The position numbers and the translations under genes were made by a program. This document shows, piece after piece, positions 29,084-51,196 of a DNA stretch of 64,000 nucleotides; within the stretch, counting starts at the first letter, position 1; each line of letters begins with the position of its first letter. The notes under the pieces were generated by a model that did not search any database, was not told the origin of the DNA, and saw only the letters and a program-made list of their open reading frames with translations. Source of the DNA: Escherichia coli. GTDB taxonomy: Bacteria; Pseudomonadota; Gammaproteobacteria; Enterobacterales; Enterobacteriaceae. The stretch lies in NCBI RefSeq assembly GCF_041886205.1, contig NZ_CP169029.1, one strand, 5' to 3'.

Positions 29084-29257
29084 TCAGTTAGTGCATGTTT
29101 TTTTCGATGCACTAATAGAACCATCATTACAGACAAATTTGCCGCCTGCCGTACAGTGTGAGATCCCCCCTTTCGAACCAGAACAGGGTTAGCGCCCGGC
29201 ATCGGCATAAAAGGAAACAAGCGTTCCCATAAACAAAATAAGTGCCAGTTTTTTCAT
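29084..29257 (-). pseudogene. ydcA: ydcA interrupted by ochre stop at codon 23 (58-codon frame otherwise intact)
   Basis: Minus-strand translation [63 protein letters not shown]; stop at 29189..29191. Confidence 0.7.
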
Positions 29258-38730: not shown

Positions 38731-41701
<2,971 letters not shown>

Positions 41702-41871
41702 TATCAATCCTTGATAATTCGGTTTGCGCTATGGTGCATCAATTCCCCTGACGGAGATATCGCAACACGCCGCTTCATTAAAAATTCAGAATATATCAAG
41801 GTATTGGGGACTCACTGCCAGGAATGATTATCCCCAATTAATCAAATGGTTAAGAAACATTACGTTGTGGA

Positions 41872-44178
41872 TCAATACAACTCATCAAGTTTTCTCATCG
41901 CTTGTTCCCGTATTGCGCGCGTCTTACCGTTAAGCGCCAGCTGGCGGACTAAATCCAGTTCAGGGTTAACAAGCTCTAACGCCAGCAAAGGATCACGTTT
42001 CAGCCTCGCCTTTAATACATCAACTGGAAAACGGGGATTATTCATCGCCACAATCCACCACTCGGGATCAATTTCTGCCGCCAGTACTGCAGGCGGTGTG
42101 TGGCGGTTGTTAAGTGCGCCGAACTTGAAAAATGTGAGATTGCTTTTCGCCAGTGTACTCCACCATATACGATCCGGTTGTTTTGCCAGTACATCCAGTT
42201 GTGCTAACGCATCGGGGTCGAGTGCATAATAAACACGTAATGCTTCATCAACCTGCGCACGGGAGCTGTTTTCCTGCCTCAGAAAAAACTTCGCCCAAAT
42301 ATCATTGCGTGGCGTATTTTGCTGTAATTCCTTGAGGACAACAGCGGGTAAATTATCCCAACTAACTAATGCACTCTCTAAAAAGTCCCAGTCTTCCAAA
42401 CGTATCAGGGCGGTGGCATTTAATAGCATCTGGTCATCAACTTCACCGTGGCTGATAAGCTCAGACAAAATCATATCAGCGCTGGTTTCATATGCAGCTG
42501 AATCTGCTTTCGGATTATTTTTCCGATGTGATAAAGCACGTTGCCAAATTTTTTGTTTCATCGCCGTACTCAGATACTGATTTTTCGCCAGATTACTCCA
42601 CCCCTCAGGATCGTTGAAACGTGTCAATAACCGTTGTAAAGCAGCGTCAGAGTGAATTACCTGCATATCCCGACAGCAAAAGTAGGCAGGGGATTTTTTC
42701 TCCATCCTTTTAACAAAATTAAACTGTAAGTTATCTGGCAACGCTAAAAATAACGCACCTATTAGATCATCGTCATTCTCGAATTTTTGGTATAAATATA
42801 CTGCTATTTTGTCACTCTCTTGTGGCGTCATCCGCAACAATTGACCATGGTGTTTCATCTCTGCCAGCTTTAACGCTAAGCTTGTGACAACATCGTTTGA
42901 TGAATCGTTCGCCAACTGCATTGCCTGATTGTAGGTGAGTTGTCCTCCAGCACCGACCTGACGAATAGAGGAATCATCACTGCGGATATAGCCATCAATA
43001 ATGGATTCGGGCAATAACCACGCATCTTTATAAAGCTCCTGAATGATCATATCCCAATCTCTTTTCGCCAGAGTCATGACGATATCCAGAGGGAGATTTT
43101 CACGTAGCGCAAGATTCAACGGACCGACACCATCAGGTAGATGACTCATTCGCGTCATTATTTCGACAGAGAGCGGTTCACGGTCGAGCAACCCCAGAAC
43201 AACAGGCTGGTAACCCAATTGCTGATCGGTCAACTCCAGAATCTCATTGTCCGGCATATATCTCGCCATACTTTCAATCGTTTGTTCATCATTGCTATTA
43301 ATAAGTTGTTTGCGTAGGTTAGCTGAAATTCCTTTAAGCCTTGGGAGAGTTCGCATTATGGCAAGATCAAATGTCGCAATATCTCGTCCTTCAAATGCAG
43401 CAACGTTGCCTTCATCCAGCATTTGCAATTCCTGCACTAACTCAGGAGAAGGCTTAGGGCGAAACAGCGCTTCTTTTTTCATCTGATTACAGACATTCCC
43501 TGCCATGCGAATATTGCTTCGCTTAAAAATTTCTTTCAGAGCATCTTCATCATTTATTCGACCCTAATAATATGCATCAGGATTTATTATCATCAGCGCT
43601 TTTTTGACATTTTCAGTGTCATTTTTGTCACTCGCACGGACCATGAATTCACTATTTGTCGAAGACGCAACAACAGGTGCAATTATGTCATTGATAAATA
43701 TCCCACGCGCATTAATACTCCCCTTAATCGTAGACGGATTATCGTAATATGAGTCGATAAATACCAGTCCACTTGCATTTATCGAACCGGTAATTAACAG
43801 TGGCGAATCTGTAACTATATTTGTTGCCGTCACGTTACCGAGAATAACCCATGGATTAGAAAGAGAGAAAGTGGAAATATTACCTTTGACTGTCAAATTG
43901 CCAAGAACAATCAATTTTTGATTACTCTCTATATTACCTTCTACCACTAAATCGCCACGATGCACTTTCCAGTCCGATGCAGATAAACCGAAGGGGACAA
44001 GATTCACGCTACTGTTGATAGCTTGTTCAACTTGTTGTTTATCTTCAGCGGTAGCTGCAGATAAAAATGGTTCAATATCAACTGCATTTGCAACACATCG
44101 AAGTTCCGCCTGTACTGGAAGACTCAGCATAAACAGGGGAAGTAAACCTATCCAGCTGCAAATCCTGGGCTTAAACAT
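41872..44178 (-). pseudogene. ydbD: ydbD (DUF2773) split by in-frame amber codon into 204/206-aa and 544-aa ORFs
   Basis: ORFs 43564..44184 and 41872..43506 are in the same frame, separated by TAG at 43564..43566 and 19 open codons; total matches a 768-codon frame from ATG 44178. Confidence 0.65.
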
Positions 44179-44241
44179 ATGCACTCCATGCCATTAAAAA
44201 AGAAACAAAAGGGAAATGCATCTTTCCCTTTTGTATATTCG

Positions 44242-45102
44242 TTATTCTCGCGAAATACCATCCAACGTAGACAACACTTCCTCAGAAAGATGCAATTTTT
44301 CAGCAGCCATATTCTCCCGTAAATGCGCAACAGAAGATGTCCCTGGGATCAGCAAAATATTCGGTGAACGTTGTAACAGCCACGCCAGCGCCACCTGCAT
44401 GGGTGTTGCACCCAGGCTCGCAGCAACATCCGACAGCGTAGAGGATTGCAGCGGTGTAAAGCCCCCGAGCGGGAAGAACGGCACGTAGGCAATGCCATCG
44501 CGGGCCAAAGCATCAATCATTGCATCATCCGCACGATGAGCAATGTTGTATTCGTTCTGCACGCAGACGATTTCGGCAATCTTGCGTGCCTCTGCAACCT
44601 GCGTCGGTGTGACGTTGCTCAGGCCAATATGTTTTACCAGACCTTGTTGTTGCATCTCAGCCAGCACGGTCAGGCTGGCCTCAATCGATCCTTCCGCTGG
44701 GCCATGACCATCCCCCATCATAACGCGCAGGTTAACCACATCCAGTACGTCCAGGCCGAGATTACGTAGATTATCGTGCACCGCTTTTTGCAACTCTGCC
44801 GGAGAAAAGGCGGGCAACCAGGAAGCGTCCTCTCCACGCCGCGCACCAATTTTAGTGACAATTGTCAGGTCGTCAGAGTAAGGATAAAGCGCTTCGCGGA
44901 TAATCTGATTGGTGACGTGCGGACCATAAAAGTCGCTGGTATCAATGTGATTGACGCCCAATGCCAGCGCCTCGCGCAGCACAGTTATAGCGACGTGGCG
45001 ATCTCTTGGGGGACCAAAAACCCCAGGACCTGCCAGTTGCATCGCGCCATAACCAAGACGGTTAACGGATTTTGTACCGAGAGTAAATGTATTGCTGCTC
45101 AT
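44242..45102 (-). CDS. ydbC: Aldo-keto reductase YdbC, 286 aa
   Basis: ORF 44242..45102; AKR family sequence. Confidence 0.9.
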   Translation of the reverse strand: MSSNTFTLGTKSVNRLGYGAMQLAGPGVFGPPRDRHVAITVLREALALGVNHIDTSDFYGPHVTNQIIREALYPYSDDLTIVTKIGARRGEDASWLPAFSPAELQKAVHDNLRNLGLDVLDVVNLRVMMGDGHGPAEGSIEASLTVLAEMQQQGLVKHIGLSNVTPTQVAEARKIAEIVCVQNEYNIAHRADDAMIDALARDGIAYVPFFPLGGFTPLQSSTLSDVAASLGATPMQVALAWLLQRSPNILLIPGTSSVAHLRENMAAEKLHLSEEVLSTLDGISRE

Positions 45103-45256
45103 CGCACCCTGCCCTGTAATAAAACGGATTAAGAAAAATCAGTATAGAAACGAAAAGAGATAAATAATGCGAAGGTGTAAACAAGATTACTGGATGAGTT
45201 GCTCTATTGTCCTGAAAGACACCAAAACAAAACGCGTCAAGTACCGCATCCGGCAA

Positions 45257-45289
45257 TAAAAAAACCGCAACCTGTATCAGCGTTGCGGT
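45257..45289 (-). terminator. Rho-independent terminator for ydbA
   Basis: Minus-strand hairpin CCGCAAC...GTTGCGG followed by UUUUUUU, 20 bp after ydbA stop. Confidence 0.6.
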
Positions 45290-45310
45290 TTAGGGATCAC
45301 ATGCTAAAAA

Positions 45311-48300
45311 TTAGAACGTTTTCTTGAAGTTCAGCATCACGCCTTTGTCGCTGATGCCGTCCTCTTTCCAGTTGTACGCATCCAGATTCAGCGAACTTTC
45401 TTTGCTGCTGTACTTCACGCCGACGCTTGCCAGGCTGTTAATGCCGCCGCCCTTCTGACCGTCATCGACGTTAAAGTGCTGACTGCCTGCGCCTGCCAGG
45501 CTTGCCGTACGCTGGCTCTTCGCGTAGCTCAGGTTCGGCCCGCCTTCCAGCGTGGCGTTCGCACTCCAGCCGTCTTTTCCTGCATAATCCAGCTTCAGCC
45601 CGACGATGCTGTCCACCGCCGTTTCGCTGCCGCTGTTCATATTCAGGTTAAAGTCTCCGGCGTTACGCTCCTTATAGCCACCTTCCAGTGTGTGACGCAG
45701 TTTTACACCCGCATATGGCGTAACCTTCAGTCCTTCGCTCGGTTCGAAAGTCTTCGCTCCTTCGCTACGGAACTCCAGGTACTGCTGCTTCACGTCGGTA
45801 TCAGCCGTTTTGTTCGTGTTGCTAAATGCAATCGAGCGGCTGCTGTCAAGGTTGTGAACGTCGTAACGCAAGGCGTTATTCCAGTTCATGCCATTGTCGA
45901 AGGACATCTGATGTTTCAGGCCAAAGAACTGGCTATAACCGCCTGTAACGCCATTATCACCCGCTTTCTGCGCACCATCACCATCGAGACGAGCGATACC
46001 GTACTCCAGACTCATCGTCTGGCTTTCGCTCAGGTCGATGGTTTTACGCAATGCCAGCATGTCGTATTCGGTATTATTACCTAACTCGGCACGCGGATCG
46101 CCTTTCGCGACAACGTTGAACGCCAGACCGTTACCTACCTTCGGTGCGGCATCCGCCAACATACTAAAGCGGTTGCTTAACACGCGCGCTTCGCGGAATA
46201 CCGTGGTCGCCTGGCTACCGCTGACCTGTTTCAGAGCGCTGTTCAGTTCAGCAGTCGTGCCGACGTTCAGGCTGGTAAACAGTTCGTTGTTGGTGTAACC
46301 CGCATCCAGTGCTTTCGCGATGTCATTCACCGAAGCATCTGTTGCCACATCGGTATAAGCGTTTTTGCTCATGGTGACGTCAACGTTACCGCTGGCATCG
46401 GTGCTGCCTTTAGCAGTCCATACCACGGAGGTTGAGGTGATAGCATCCGCGTCGGTCAGGTTGCTGCCCTCCACCACGTTATCAAAATTAACGGTGGTGT
46501 CTGCCGTACAAGCGGTAAACCCGGTGTTGATCCCCACGCCGTTCATGCTGGCATTGTTGACCCTGAGCTTACCGGCGCTGCCATCGGCACTCGTTCCCAC
46601 CACGTAACCGTTGAGATTATTCATGCCGCCATCAACTGCATCACTTCCCGGCGTTAGGCTAACCGTAGTGGGATTCGGTACATCCGGCAACGTATAGTCG
46701 CCATAATGCAATTCCGTGTTATTACCGTTGTTACCGTTCACGCCTTCAACATTGACGCTGTCGCCCTGCTTAATCAGCCCCGATCCTGTCACGCCATCCG
46801 CAATGACCACCGTGCCGTTGTTGACCACGTGACCTTCTGTACCCAGCACGCTGAATGCAAACGAGTCATTGGCGAAGATATTGATGGTGCCGTTGTTCTC
46901 GATCACCGCATCCGCCGTGGCGTTAGCATCGAGTTGCATACCGATCATGCCCGTATCGGTAGTGCCCTCTGTACCGAGGTTGATGGTGCCAGTGTTAACC
47001 AGTTGCGCATTCTTATCACCTTCCATAGCCACAGCACCGGTGCCGCTGATATTCATCGTGCCGTCATTCTGCGCAATGAAGTTACTGTGAGTGAATTTCA
47101 CGGCGCTGGTACTGTCGTGGTCGAAGTTGATGACCCCGTTATCCAGATTCCAGAAGAATGCGCTCTGATCGCCAGCGTTATTGGCGCTCACCACCAGCGA
47201 CTTCGCAGAGACATCAATCGTTCCATCGTTGATAAAGCGACCATTCCCACCCCACATATTGACAGCACCGTTATGTGAGGAATTACTGATGTCCATGTGA
47301 CCAGTGTTATAAAGCGTACCGGACTGATTAATATGCACAGCATTCTTGTTGTTATCGAGGATAAACTCACCGCTGTTATTGAAGACGGCGTTGTTATTAA
47401 CTTCCAGCATACCTGCGTTATTGCCGCCACTGCTACTACCGAGGCGCCAGGTTCCTTCGTTATTGACCCAGGCATCACCGGTTAATGCAGAACCATTGTC
47501 CACTTTGCCATCTTGTAGGTTATTAAAGATGCCACTGGTCTGAATAATACGTTTACTCACCGTACCACTGTTATTAAAGACGCCGGATTTTTGCACAACA
47601 TTGCTAATAGTACCGGAGTTGTTCACCAGATTAGTGCTAGCCCCAGCATACATTGTCACATTACCGTTGATGGTACCCTCATTATTGAGTACCCCCCCCT
47701 GAGCATCAATATTACCCATCGAGCCAGCATTATCTATTACAGCATCTGGTGCCAATTTCACCATGGAGTTAATAATCCCCGTAGAGGCATTTTCGAGCGT
47801 ACCACTCCGAACGTTAATATCACTACCAGAAGCCGTCCCCGCATTAATAACGCTTCCGGGCACTGCGTCAGTTATCACCACAGAATTAATGAAGTTTGTC
47901 GACTCACCATCTGCCACCAGGATATCACCACCAGAGTATTGCAATGAGACATAATTATCGCCCTGGTTATATTCATCCGCACTCTGACAAATACCAAAAG
48001 TACAGAACCTGCCATAGTTAATAATTATTCCTGTTCCATCGCTGTAAAATGCCTGGCCGATATTTGTATCGATATTAATTACACCCGTTATATCATTAAT
48101 TGCCATACCACTATTAATTGCACCCACCGCGAACAGCTGGTTCTCTTGCTGCTTCGTCACGCCCTCATCTGCGGTGAGGTTGATTGTCCCCTGGTTGACA
48201 ACGGTCCCGCCGCTCATCGCCAGCATACCGAAACCTTCGTTATTAACATTGATGGTTCCGGTATTTAACCCACTGGCATCGCCATTTCCGATATCGGTTG

Positions 48301-51196
48301 ACCCCACAAGAACGCCACCGGACATAAGATAAGGATGGGACGTTTGCCAGTAGGATTTACTGATGATATTACCATCGCTGTCCAGTTCGGGAATAAAGCC
48401 ATCGACATTGATTTCCCCGGCGTTGGTCGCCGTGCCTTTAGATGCGGCGACGGCATAAATCCCCGCCCCCTGCAGATTCATGGTGGCGTCGGATTCATTG
48501 ATCACGCTGCCATCATTACTGGCCCACAGACCATAGTTGGCACCGAAATACCATTTCAGAGGGGCTTCAGATATCCCTCCGGCAAAAGCAGGCGTCGTTA
48601 CAGAAAGCAGATTTATCACGCCACCCGACGCATTCGTAACCTGAGAATTCTGGCCACGAGCACGCATTGTCCCCACCGTGGTGAATTGCTCACCGCTAGG
48701 TTTGACATTAATAGTTCCACTATTAGTGATATGTGCACCATTGTTAGCCATCATTAAATCCTGGCTATCCAGCGTGTTAATCACACCTTTGTTTTCAACG
48801 CCGGACTGACTGCCAGTAGCAGAAATAAGCGCACGATTATCGAAGAAATAGTCGGTATCTCTGACTTTACTGGATATATCCGTTACAGAGTTTTTATCAA
48901 ATATAACATTTCCACCGTCCGCCACCGTGACCAACGTAAAGGCACCCACTACCTGACGGATATCCATAGTTGAATGGCCACTAATGTTAACTGTATTATC
49001 ACCAATAATTGATATACCATCTATGATATGCGCGGAGCTATCCCCAGCAACATTAATACCACCATCGATATTAATGGTATTATTCGTACCGGAAACGACC
49101 ATGCCATTCGCCAAGTGATCTTGATATATTAATACACCTTCCACCGTAATATTAACATGACCACTAATATCCACCGTGTTATTTTCACCACTGATCACGC
49201 CGCCGCTTATCGGAGTGATTTGTGCATCAGCGTTATCGCCGAGACTGGAATTAATATTAATGCTTCCGTCAACGCTAATATGGCTGTCATTACCCGTCAG
49301 GCTGAAACCTGTAGCACCCGGCGCATTGCCTTCGCTATCTGGTTGCTGGAATACGTTAATATCTCCGCTTAATTCAACCTGCTCACGGTCACCCACAATG
49401 GATACCCCAGTTCCGTATCGCGAAACATCAATTTCGCCCACGTTACCAAAAACTTCATCATCACCATCTATCAGAACTCCCACAGAACCGGAATCCGTAA
49501 CAACAATCTTGCCTTTATTACTTATCTGCGAGTTATTACCGGCGATATAAATACCCGTTGCCCCTCCGCTGACGTAGAGGTCACCTTCCTGGCTAATTGT
49601 TGCATTGTGCCCAGCAACTTTTGTCCCTACCGCATTCTCACCGTCAACCGTCATATCCCCGGCGATATTCATCTCATTGCCATCGCCAGTGATGGTTATA
49701 CCGGTGGCATTCTCACCCAAAATATTAAGATCATAGGTCGCCAGGGTAATACTATTGTTGTCGCCGATAATCTCCATGCCGGTTGTATCGTCTTTAACCA
49801 ACATCGAGCCAGCAAGCGAAATACTGCTGCTGTCCCCGGTGATTTTTACACCAGTACCGTTATTTGTCGTGGTGATGTCCCCCACATTGACAAAGGTAGT
49901 ATTATCACCATTGATTAACACGCCATAGGGGTTTCCATCACCGTCCGCCTGACCAACATTGATATCACCAATGTTCATAAAGGTTGTCTGATCGCCATCC
50001 AGCAACACACCGATGGAACTGTCATCCACCACAGTAATATTACCTTTATTACTGATGACAGTACCCTTACCCTCGGCGTCAATACCGTGTGCGCCACCGC
50101 TGACGTATAAGTCACCCTGCTGCCTTACAATGGCATCTTCGCCGATAATTTTTGACCCCGTTGAATTTGCACCATCAACGGTCATGTCGCCTTTGATTTC
50201 AACGCGGGCATCATCCCCTGTAATCACACTCCCCGTGCCTCCATTCGCGATTTCAACATCACCAACGGTGTCCAGCGTGGTACGATCGCCATTAACAATA
50301 ACTGCCGCCCCACCATCAACTTCCGTCTCACCATTATTAGTAATGGTGATATCATCACCGGTAAGAATACCTACCACCGAACCTTCACCAATCGCGGTAG
50401 TTTTGCCATCGTTGTTCAGGGTGATGTCGTTACCGTCAACGTTTATCACAACGCCGCCATTCAGCGCGATGTTGCCGCCATGGTCGGTAATAGTGGCATC
50501 GTTAATATGGAAATGTTCGCCAGTTGTACCGTCTGCGGTGGTGAGTGACTCTATGATTATTTCGATTTTTCCCGCTTCGTCATAGCGCCAGGTGGAGGTT
50601 CCGCCAGGATTGACGCCATTGAACGAAGCCGTGTTAGCCGCCTCGTCGACTAACCAATCCTTCACGATTGTGGTAGTGCCGCCAGGTCCGGTAAGCGTAT
50701 AGCTGCCATCGTCATTTTTGGTGTAGGTAAAGGTGGTATCACGTAATTTTAGGGTCTTCGCGTCCTGATCCCAGGTGACATCGTTTTTATAGACCACAGG
50801 ATCGTGTTTGACTGGCGTGTCATCGCCACCGTCGTCCGGGGTATCATCGCCGCCATCATCCGGCGGGACAGGTGTGTCGCCGCCATCATCCGGCACCGGA
50901 GACGGATCGTCATGATGATTATTATTATCGTGGAGTGCATATACTGCGACGCCTGTGACTGCCGCTGCCAGCCCCACTGCAGCCCAGGGTAATAACTCAT
51001 TATCTTCAACTGATTTACACTCTGCCGGCAGCTTTTCTAGCTGTTCTTTACTTAGTGATTTAATATTAGCCGGGCAGCTAATCTTGCTGGATTTACGAGA
51101 TTCATCCGATGTTTCCGCTATCGACGTATCTGCCGCCCATGTCTGACTGCTTAACGCCATTGCAACACAGACACTGAGCAATTTTTTCCTTTGCAT
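45311..51196 (-). CDS. ydbA: Intact autotransporter YdbA, 1961 aa (signal peptide, repetitive beta-helix passenger, C-terminal beta-barrel)
   Basis: Single ORF 45311..51196; signal peptide MQRKKLLSVCVAMALSSQTWA; GD/GN-rich repeats; C-terminal barrel ending KKTF; SD GAGGA upstream of ATG. Confidence 0.85.
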   Translation of the reverse strand: MQRKKLLSVCVAMALSSQTWAADTSIAETSDESRKSSKISCPANIKSLSKEQLEKLPAECKSVEDNELLPWAAVGLAAAVTGVAVYALHDNNNHHDDPSPVPDDGGDTPVPPDDGGDDTPDDGGDDTPVKHDPVVYKNDVTWDQDAKTLKLRDTTFTYTKNDDGSYTLTGPGGTTTIVKDWLVDEAANTASFNGVNPGGTSTWRYDEAGKIEIIIESLTTADGTTGEHFHINDATITDHGGNIALNGGVVINVDGNDITLNNDGKTTAIGEGSVVGILTGDDITITNNGETEVDGGAAVIVNGDRTTLDTVGDVEIANGGTGSVITGDDARVEIKGDMTVDGANSTGSKIIGEDAIVRQQGDLYVSGGAHGIDAEGKGTVISNKGNITVVDDSSIGVLLDGDQTTFMNIGDINVGQADGDGNPYGVLINGDNTTFVNVGDITTTNNGTGVKITGDSSSISLAGSMLVKDDTTGMEIIGDNNSITLATYDLNILGENATGITITGDGNEMNIAGDMTVDGENAVGTKVAGHNATISQEGDLYVSGGATGIYIAGNNSQISNKGKIVVTDSGSVGVLIDGDDEVFGNVGEIDVSRYGTGVSIVGDREQVELSGDINVFQQPDSEGNAPGATGFSLTGNDSHISVDGSININSSLGDNADAQITPISGGVISGENNTVDISGHVNITVEGVLIYQDHLANGMVVSGTNNTINIDGGINVAGDSSAHIIDGISIIGDNTVNISGHSTMDIRQVVGAFTLVTVADGGNVIFDKNSVTDISSKVRDTDYFFDNRALISATGSQSGVENKGVINTLDSQDLMMANNGAHITNSGTINVKPSGEQFTTVGTMRARGQNSQVTNASGGVINLLSVTTPAFAGGISEAPLKWYFGANYGLWASNDGSVINESDATMNLQGAGIYAVAASKGTATNAGEINVDGFIPELDSDGNIISKSYWQTSHPYLMSGGVLVGSTDIGNGDASGLNTGTINVNNEGFGMLAMSGGTVVNQGTINLTADEGVTKQQENQLFAVGAINSGMAINDITGVINIDTNIGQAFYSDGTGIIINYGRFCTFGICQSADEYNQGDNYVSLQYSGGDILVADGESTNFINSVVITDAVPGSVINAGTASGSDINVRSGTLENASTGIINSMVKLAPDAVIDNAGSMGNIDAQGGVLNNEGTINGNVTMYAGASTNLVNNSGTISNVVQKSGVFNNSGTVSKRIIQTSGIFNNLQDGKVDNGSALTGDAWVNNEGTWRLGSSSGGNNAGMLEVNNNAVFNNSGEFILDNNKNAVHINQSGTLYNTGHMDISNSSHNGAVNMWGGNGRFINDGTIDVSAKSLVVSANNAGDQSAFFWNLDNGVINFDHDSTSAVKFTHSNFIAQNDGTMNISGTGAVAMEGDKNAQLVNTGTINLGTEGTTDTGMIGMQLDANATADAVIENNGTINIFANDSFAFSVLGTEGHVVNNGTVVIADGVTGSGLIKQGDSVNVEGVNGNNGNNTELHYGDYTLPDVPNPTTVSLTPGSDAVDGGMNNLNGYVVGTSADGSAGKLRVNNASMNGVGINTGFTACTADTTVNFDNVVEGSNLTDADAITSTSVVWTAKGSTDASGNVDVTMSKNAYTDVATDASVNDIAKALDAGYTNNELFTSLNVGTTAELNSALKQVSGSQATTVFREARVLSNRFSMLADAAPKVGNGLAFNVVAKGDPRAELGNNTEYDMLALRKTIDLSESQTMSLEYGIARLDGDGAQKAGDNGVTGGYSQFFGLKHQMSFDNGMNWNNALRYDVHNLDSSRSIAFSNTNKTADTDVKQQYLEFRSEGAKTFEPSEGLKVTPYAGVKLRHTLEGGYKERNAGDFNLNMNSGSETAVDSIVGLKLDYAGKDGWSANATLEGGPNLSYAKSQRTASLAGAGSQHFNVDDGQKGGGINSLASVGVKYSSKESSLNLDAYNWKEDGISDKGVMLNFKKTF
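50818..50896. repeat. Imperfect tandem repeat (three ~24-30-bp units) encoding Pro/Asp/Gly-rich linker in ydbA
   Basis: Repeated TCGCCGCCATCATCCGG units encoding PDDGGD(D)TP x3. Confidence 0.6.

Follow-up and report, generated by a model that had tools for sequence, protein, structure and literature searches.

The question raised by this locus is whether an in-frame amber codon that divides the ydbD gene into two open reading frames (ORFs) is a genuine and inactivating mutation, an error of sequencing or assembly, or a tolerated feature of a gene that still works. The locus lies on the minus strand of a 64,000-nucleotide stretch of Escherichia coli DNA (the window). Counted from GTG 44184, the upstream ORF (43564..44184) is 206 codons long; counted from ATG 44178, the start that RefSeq uses, it is 204. 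The downstream ORF (41872..43506) has 544 codons from ATG 43506. A sequence-only reading of this DNA had claimed that both share one minus-strand frame split by a TAG codon, and all of its coordinates and counts were correct on re-examination. Translation of 41872..44184 gave 771 codons with one internal stop. This premature amber codon, at 43564..43566, is codon 205 counted from ATG 44178, and the minus strand around it reads ...CCT GAT GCA TAT TAT TAG GGT CGA ATA AAT GAT..., with the TAG running from 43566 to 43564. The remaining N-terminal frame upstream of it (43567..44178, minus strand) comprises 204 codons, with a signal-peptide-like start followed by repeats. The remainder of ydbD past the stop (41872..43563, minus strand) comprises 19 open codons, up to ATG 43506, and then the 544-codon ORF, which ends at the native stop codon at 41872-41874.

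Comparison of the 2313-nt frame with ydbD of K-12 strains W3110 and MG1655 gave 97.6% nucleotide identity over the full length. The read-through frame from ATG 44178 is 768 codons long, which is the length of ydbD in K-12 W3110 (2307 nt including the stop) and agrees with the length given for K-12 YdbD in the sequence-only reading. In the window ydbD is flanked by pdxI (ydbC) and ynbA, the same order as in K-12 W3110, where the genes run pdxI (ydbC), ydbD and ynbA-ynbB-ynbC-ynbD. Given this identity and these K-12-like neighbours, chance resemblance is no concern for the identity of the gene. A terminator-like 12-bp stem-loop followed by a T-run is present in the sequence between pdxI (ydbC) and ydbD (44205..44234, minus strand). 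The K-12 gene (b1407, WP_000910026.1, 'DUF2773 domain-containing bactofilin') thus shares with the window its 768-codon length, its neighbours and a C-terminal DUF2773 domain, but differs in having TGG at codon 205, an uninterrupted ORF and an intact ynbABCD cluster. The window frame, used as query, matched ydbD in 3996 of the 5426 complete E. coli genomes searched, and at least 80% of the frame was covered in 3833 of them.

The C-terminal DUF2773 domain (PF10971) occupies residues 688-768 of the read-through protein (41875..42117, minus strand; Pfam i-Evalue 2.3e-45, full model length), and the TAG sits far upstream of it. The N-terminal region is of a different kind. Read by eye, it begins with MFKPRICSWIGLLPLFMLSLPVQA followed by E, a typical n-h-c layout that resembles a Sec signal peptide, and it continues into visible G-N/S-[ILV] repeats of the beta-helix type. 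The earlier claim that truncation falls after a signal peptide and a repeat-rich N-terminal domain therefore agrees with the position of the TAG, which follows both. Residues 78-141 (43756..43947, minus strand) match Bactofilin (PF04519), the family of polymer-forming cytoskeletal proteins, at a Pfam i-Evalue of 0.047, which is below significance, although the NCBI annotation pipeline PGAP uses the name, calling the gene product 'DUF2773 domain-containing bactofilin'. Classical bactofilins are cytoplasmic, in contrast to the signal-peptide-like start of YdbD. An NCBIfam scan of both ydbD fragments assigned no family at cutoff and returned only a spurious MinC-like match, and a sequence search of the PDB with YdbD detected no solved structure. 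YdbD is described as an uncharacterized, methylglyoxal-induced protein whose gene is upregulated 3.9-fold on sigma-E overexpression (PMC2731931), and the literature on its function is limited to induction by methylglyoxal or sigma-E overexpression (PMC2731931, PMC13313352).

Alignment with ydbD of K-12 and other E. coli identified the ancestral codon as TGG (Trp205). Codon 205 was TGG in the fetched loci of K-12 W3110, O157:H7 SS TX 313-1, ws5-3, SWHEFF_69 and STEC383, and also in ET201, the nearest relative, which carries the ydbD allele of the window apart from 2 substitutions and a 1-bp deletion over the 2313 nt. None of the reference YdbD orthologues ended at the position of the TAG. TAG arises from the ancestral codon by a G-to-A transition in its middle position, base 43565, which now reads A on the minus strand and T on the plus strand, where the change is C-to-T. 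The proposal that a one-base nonsense change splits full-length ydbD was thus upheld, with TGG in intact alleles versus TAG here. At a probability of roughly 0.93, ydbD has been inactivated in this genome by a single G:C-to-A:T transition, Trp205 TGG to amber TAG (W205*), and the locus is a young pseudogene. With TAG at codon 205, it is to be regarded as a ydbD pseudogene and not as a functional member of the family.

The same codon was then sought with a 61-mer centred on the TAG, which matched exactly in 7 of the 5426 complete genomes. These were independently assembled and come from six countries: LHM10-1 (pig, China), VE-T9 (host not given, Viet Nam), CP52E (human, Thailand), wlxctx60 (Asian black bear, Japan), XJ5.2 (bovine, China), 6EVA (human, Singapore) and MB53 (poultry, Cuba). 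All seven have the TAG, codon, allele and genomic context of the window without substantive difference, and in all seven PGAP labels ydbD a pseudogene with an 'internal stop'. Codon 205 was read as TAG in the first six, which differ from the window at 0-1 positions each, and only two positions in total vary among these six full-length copies. In MB53, a loss next to an IS1 has also taken away pdxI together with the initial 240 nt of ydbD. Aligned over the whole 64 kb, the window and wlxctx60 are collinear and differ by 18 mismatches and a 300-bp difference in repeat number, and the window comes from another member of the LHM10-1/wlxctx60 TAG lineage. Among the genomes compared directly, none was identical to the window, and the ranking from a 24-kb megablast consisted largely of more distant genomes. 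A literature search for the sequence type of the LHM10-1 lineage found nothing useful. Beyond complete genomes, public contigs from NCBI, ENA and Logan carried the exact 204-aa product, named 'polymer-forming cytoskeletal protein', in 423 cases and the exact 544-aa downstream ORF in 333. These distributions show W205* to be real and heritable. It is the signature of a shallow clonal lineage of E. coli whose hosts are pigs, cattle, poultry, humans and a bear, for the most part in Asia.

A second difference lies close to the stop. Codon 207 (43558..43560, minus strand) is CGA (Arg) only in the ydbD allele of the window; all other alleles that were read have CTA (Leu) here. Since ET201 has CGA at codon 207 together with TGG at codon 205, the Leu-to-Arg change predates the stop. 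ET201 is ~100% identical to the window lineage over only ~4 kb (about 41200-45000), and its divergent flanks identify it as a recombination mosaic.

The surroundings of the gene allowed the stop to be placed relative to another lesion. Compared with K-12, the window has lost 1610 bp, so that ynbA has no 3' part, ynbB is absent altogether and ynbC has no 5' part; the junction lies at the short imperfect direct repeats TTTATCCGT / TTTGTCCGT (41507..41515, minus strand). The deletion yields an in-frame ynbA'-'ynbC fusion ORF from ATG 41701 to 40037 on the minus strand, and in the lineage genomes PGAP annotates the ynbA and ynbC halves as partial pseudogenes. In ydcA, about 14 kb from ydbD, a premature TAA is present at codon 23. 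These two lesions contradict the sequence-only reading on one point, namely that the strain otherwise looks intact here. A 71-mer across the ynb junction was found full length in 98 of the 5426 complete genomes, in at least 2 allele classes, and ET201 carries the deletion together with TGG at codon 205. The ynbA-ynbC deletion is thus older than the ydbD stop and has spread much more widely, the stop having arisen when the ydbD allele of the lineage already adjoined the deletion.

The stop at codon 205 was also found outside the lineage. Z226-5 and Z226-6, from a hospital in Qingdao, carry TAG at codon 205 on another allele, with CTA at codon 207. There are 36 differing sites between the Z226 allele and the window, but only one, at this base, between the Z226 allele and the intact ydbD of STEC383; the Z226 allele falls in the commonest allele group (2384 records with at least 99% identity). 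Including these two, TAG at codon 205 is present in 9 of the ~3600 genomes that hold the segment. Since the stop is confined to these 9 and all intact alleles read are contiguous, the distribution is not that of programmed recoding or of a naturally split gene. A further search was made for 204-aa truncations of the K-12, ws5-3, O157, SWHEFF_69 and Z226 alleles, which would represent W205* on other backgrounds, and only the K-12-allele version was found, on 25 Logan contigs. This candidate for a third event was rejected as a contig-end artefact: the six contigs read end no more than 2 nt from codon 204, and in five of them the last base is the wild-type G of TGG.

Lesions in ydbD proved to be frequent in the species. 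With the common Z226 allele as query, some ydbD was found in 4456 of the 5426 genomes and at least 80% of the gene in 3833, leaving remnants only in about 620 genomes and none in about 970. Very limited sampling was sufficient to gather a series of independent lesions. W110* (TGG to TAG) was present on the common allele within contigs of 150-540 kb (L026-L028), and among truncation controls at Q87, W110, R220, Q232 and Q249 of that allele it was the only one to exist, as a genuine internal TAG. A 1-bp deletion at codon 154 gives ORFs of 164 and 590 aa in L033, and another 1-bp deletion lies near nt 1600 of ydbD in ET201. IS1 was found at nt 582-591 of ydbD in LR-25, with a ~10-bp overlap, within ydbD at unmapped insertion sites in PSJ-36 and ATCC 43886, and adjoining an N-terminally truncated ydbD in Shigella flexneri 2a 2457T. 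These lesions inactivate the same gene at the same locus as in the window, but, except in Z226-5 and Z226-6, the mutations and their positions differ. W205* is thus one of many independent ydbD lesions, and the gene is dispensable and often lost in the species.

The occurrence of one stop on two alleles could be taken to mean that truncation of YdbD is selected, loss of the C-terminal part or of the whole protein being advantageous in some niches, or that nt 620, the altered base, is a mutational hotspot. In addition to the same G-to-A change on the separate Z226 allele, the states of nt 620 and nt 626 occur in each of their four possible combinations among the alleles, ET201 included. To account for these, one needs recurrent mutation or, failing that, recombination with its breakpoint within those 6 bp; recurrent mutation is the simpler. 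The IS1 of LR-25 lies only about 30 bp upstream of nt 620, and a ydbD mutation swept in laboratory populations selected with iron(III) (PMC12466345). However, 285 single-base changes in ydbD could create a stop, 71 of them G:C-to-A:T transitions, and with so many possible nonsense sites and at least 5 other independent lesions after minimal sampling, a single coincidence is unremarkable. Nor do the lesions respect a domain boundary, as seen from W110*, codon 154, nt ~1600 and the N-terminal deletions, and W205* lineages are uncommon, accounting for 9 of the 5426 genomes. IS1 moreover favours AT-rich targets such as the stretch around nt 582-591, which counts against reading the nearby insertion as a sign of a hotspot or of selection. 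We therefore regard selection or a hotspot as improbable, and chance adequately explains the repeated W205*.

A more specific form of the same idea holds that truncation after the beta-helix domain is convergently selected, or falls at a hotspot, and may be tied to decay of the phospholipid-type operon ynbABCD. Were this so, joint lesions would indicate that ydbD and ynb form one functional envelope module. Combined lesions do exist in the window lineage (ynbA-ynbC deletion), in Z226 (a stop in ynbC) and in ET201 (the ynb deletion plus a stop in ynbD). In contrast, LR-25 and one W110* strain have a ydbD lesion with intact ynbABCD, and the idea that ydbD and ynb always decay together was rejected as a rule, ynbABCD being intact in LR-25 and L031. 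The ynb deletion, in 98 genomes, is also far commoner than the stop, which counts against linked decay. Convergent truncation of this kind is thus quite unlikely.

Ordinary inactivation by W205* has predictable consequences for the protein. Release factor RF1 would end translation at codon 205, and the product would be a precursor of no more than 204 residues, made up of the putative signal peptide and the bactofilin-like repeat domain of beta-helical type. The 563 residues at the C-terminus, DUF2773 included, would not be made. Reinitiation at ATG 43506 or ATG 43482 would yield a fragment that has no signal peptide and would reside in the wrong compartment.

It could nevertheless be envisaged that split ydbD still functions, either through amber read-through or suppression, or as a secreted N-terminal protein together with a C-terminal protein restarted at ATG 43506 or 43482. 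Past the TAG the frame stays open throughout and has in-frame ATGs after 57 and 81 nt, the TAG separates the N-terminal repeat domain from the remainder of YdbD, and the identical truncation point arose twice. The restart at ATG 43506 that the sequence-only reading had put forward received little support, however, with predicted Shine-Dalgarno pairing of -2.3 kcal/mol compared with -5.9 at the native ydbD start and -7.8 at pdxI, and a product devoid of a signal peptide. The second in-frame ATG, at 43482, has moderate predicted pairing (-5.1 kcal/mol), and on this prediction some C-terminal fragment might be expressed, although it too would start without the signal peptide. As regards suppression, spontaneous read-through of UAG in E. 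coli is ~1% or less, which counts against functional read-through, and the 64-kb window contains no tRNA genes. None of the intact ydbD orthologues read is naturally split, and MB53 later deleted the N-terminal part of the gene. The openness of the downstream frame follows from the recency of the mutation, lineage members differing at 0-1 positions, and so counts against a function of the split gene; with two differing positions among six copies, the lineage is too young for relaxed selection past the stop to show. Rescue of YdbD by suppression or reinitiation is accordingly judged unlikely from these sequence features, and a working split gene very improbable.

That the TAG is a sequencing or assembly error for a true TGG, as might be suspected because single-base differences are the commonest type of assembly error, the nearest relative ET201 reads TGG, and at least 24 Logan contigs with the K-12 allele end exactly at this base, a hint of some local sequencing or assembly peculiarity, is effectively excluded by its recurrence in independent assemblies, namely the identical TAG in seven complete genomes from different laboratories, hosts and countries and the exact truncated product on 423 contigs, at a site with no Dam or Dcm motif and no long homopolymer.

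The W205* pseudogene is already known, in that RefSeq/PGAP annotates the sister genomes so, and it represents ordinary gene decay. The locus in the window should be annotated in the same manner, as a ydbD pseudogene (W205*), which has little import beyond bookkeeping, although the TAG allele can be used as a marker of a small lineage. More broadly, pdxI-ydbD-ynbABCD is a region of repeated gene loss in E. coli, which is consistent with ydbD being dispensable. Within this region ynbB is patchy, being present in 4274 of the 5426 genomes. In LHM10-1 and CP52E, a Tn3-family element stands in place of the sequence just past the ynbA remnant.

The TAG stop at ydbD codon 205 was found a second time, in strain Z226-5 (NZ_CP159644.1), where codon 205 has undergone the same TGG to TAG change as in the window, although on a very common ydbD allele that is distinct from the window allele. 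When the gene was compared with the intact ydbD allele of STEC383, this change was the sole difference across 2313 nt. The codon-205 stop of Z226-5 appears to have an origin independent of that in the window. The ynbC gene of Z226-5 likewise has an internal stop.

A 204-aa protein is also recorded for the K-12 ydbD allele, on 25 Logan contigs, every one of them short (longest 5.3 kb). Six of these (L020-L025) were followed to their ends, and all terminate at codon 204 or no more than 2 nt away. In 5 of the 6 contigs read the last base is nt 620 (...CATATTATTG), a wild-type G at the very base that is mutated in the window ydbD, and no IS sequence lies at the contig end. The database 'protein' of this allele is spurious, a product of contig breaks.

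Strain ET201 (NZ_CP100994.1), when compared with window 38872-47184, showed ~100% identity only over pdxI-ydbD-ynbA' (~41200-45000), while both flanks of this shared segment diverge by 2-14% from the window lineage, which makes ET201 a recombination mosaic. ET201 carries its own ydbD frameshift and an internal stop in ynbD.

Adjacent to ydbD, a 1610-bp deletion (window 40037-41707, minus strand; junction ~41507-41515) has removed ynbB and cut ynbA down to its initial ~65 codons, now joined in frame to the last ~490 codons of ynbC. Of 5426 complete E. coli genomes, 98 carry the junction, and they represent at least two allele classes, so the deletion predates the ydbD stop and is independent of it. 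In LHM10-1 and CP52E, both members of the lineage sharing the stop, a Tn3-family transposase follows the ynbA remnant, and in LHM10-1, which was traced farther, IS26, a recombinase gene and IS1133 come next. The transposase stretch replaces the ynbC'-ynbD sequence of the window in both genomes, an additional rearrangement inside this lineage.

Upstream of ydbD lies a strong terminator-like hairpin (window 44205-44234; 12-bp stem and T-run). Since its T-tail stops ~17 nt before the ATG (44178), almost no space is left downstream for a dedicated ydbD promoter.

The large BigA/YdbA-type autotransporter (window 45311-51196, minus strand) is an intact 1961-codon ORF, in contrast to the IS2/IS30-disrupted copy of K-12 and that of the sister genome wlxctx60, which has an internal stop. 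Relative to wlxctx60, the window gene is shorter by 300 bp, which indicates that repeat number varies between the two. In the small gene ydcA (window 29084-29257, minus strand), codon 23 is a premature TAA (29189-29191; MKKLALILFMGTLVSFYADAGR followed by the stop), and the wlxctx60 copy of ydcA is labelled 'internal stop' by PGAP.
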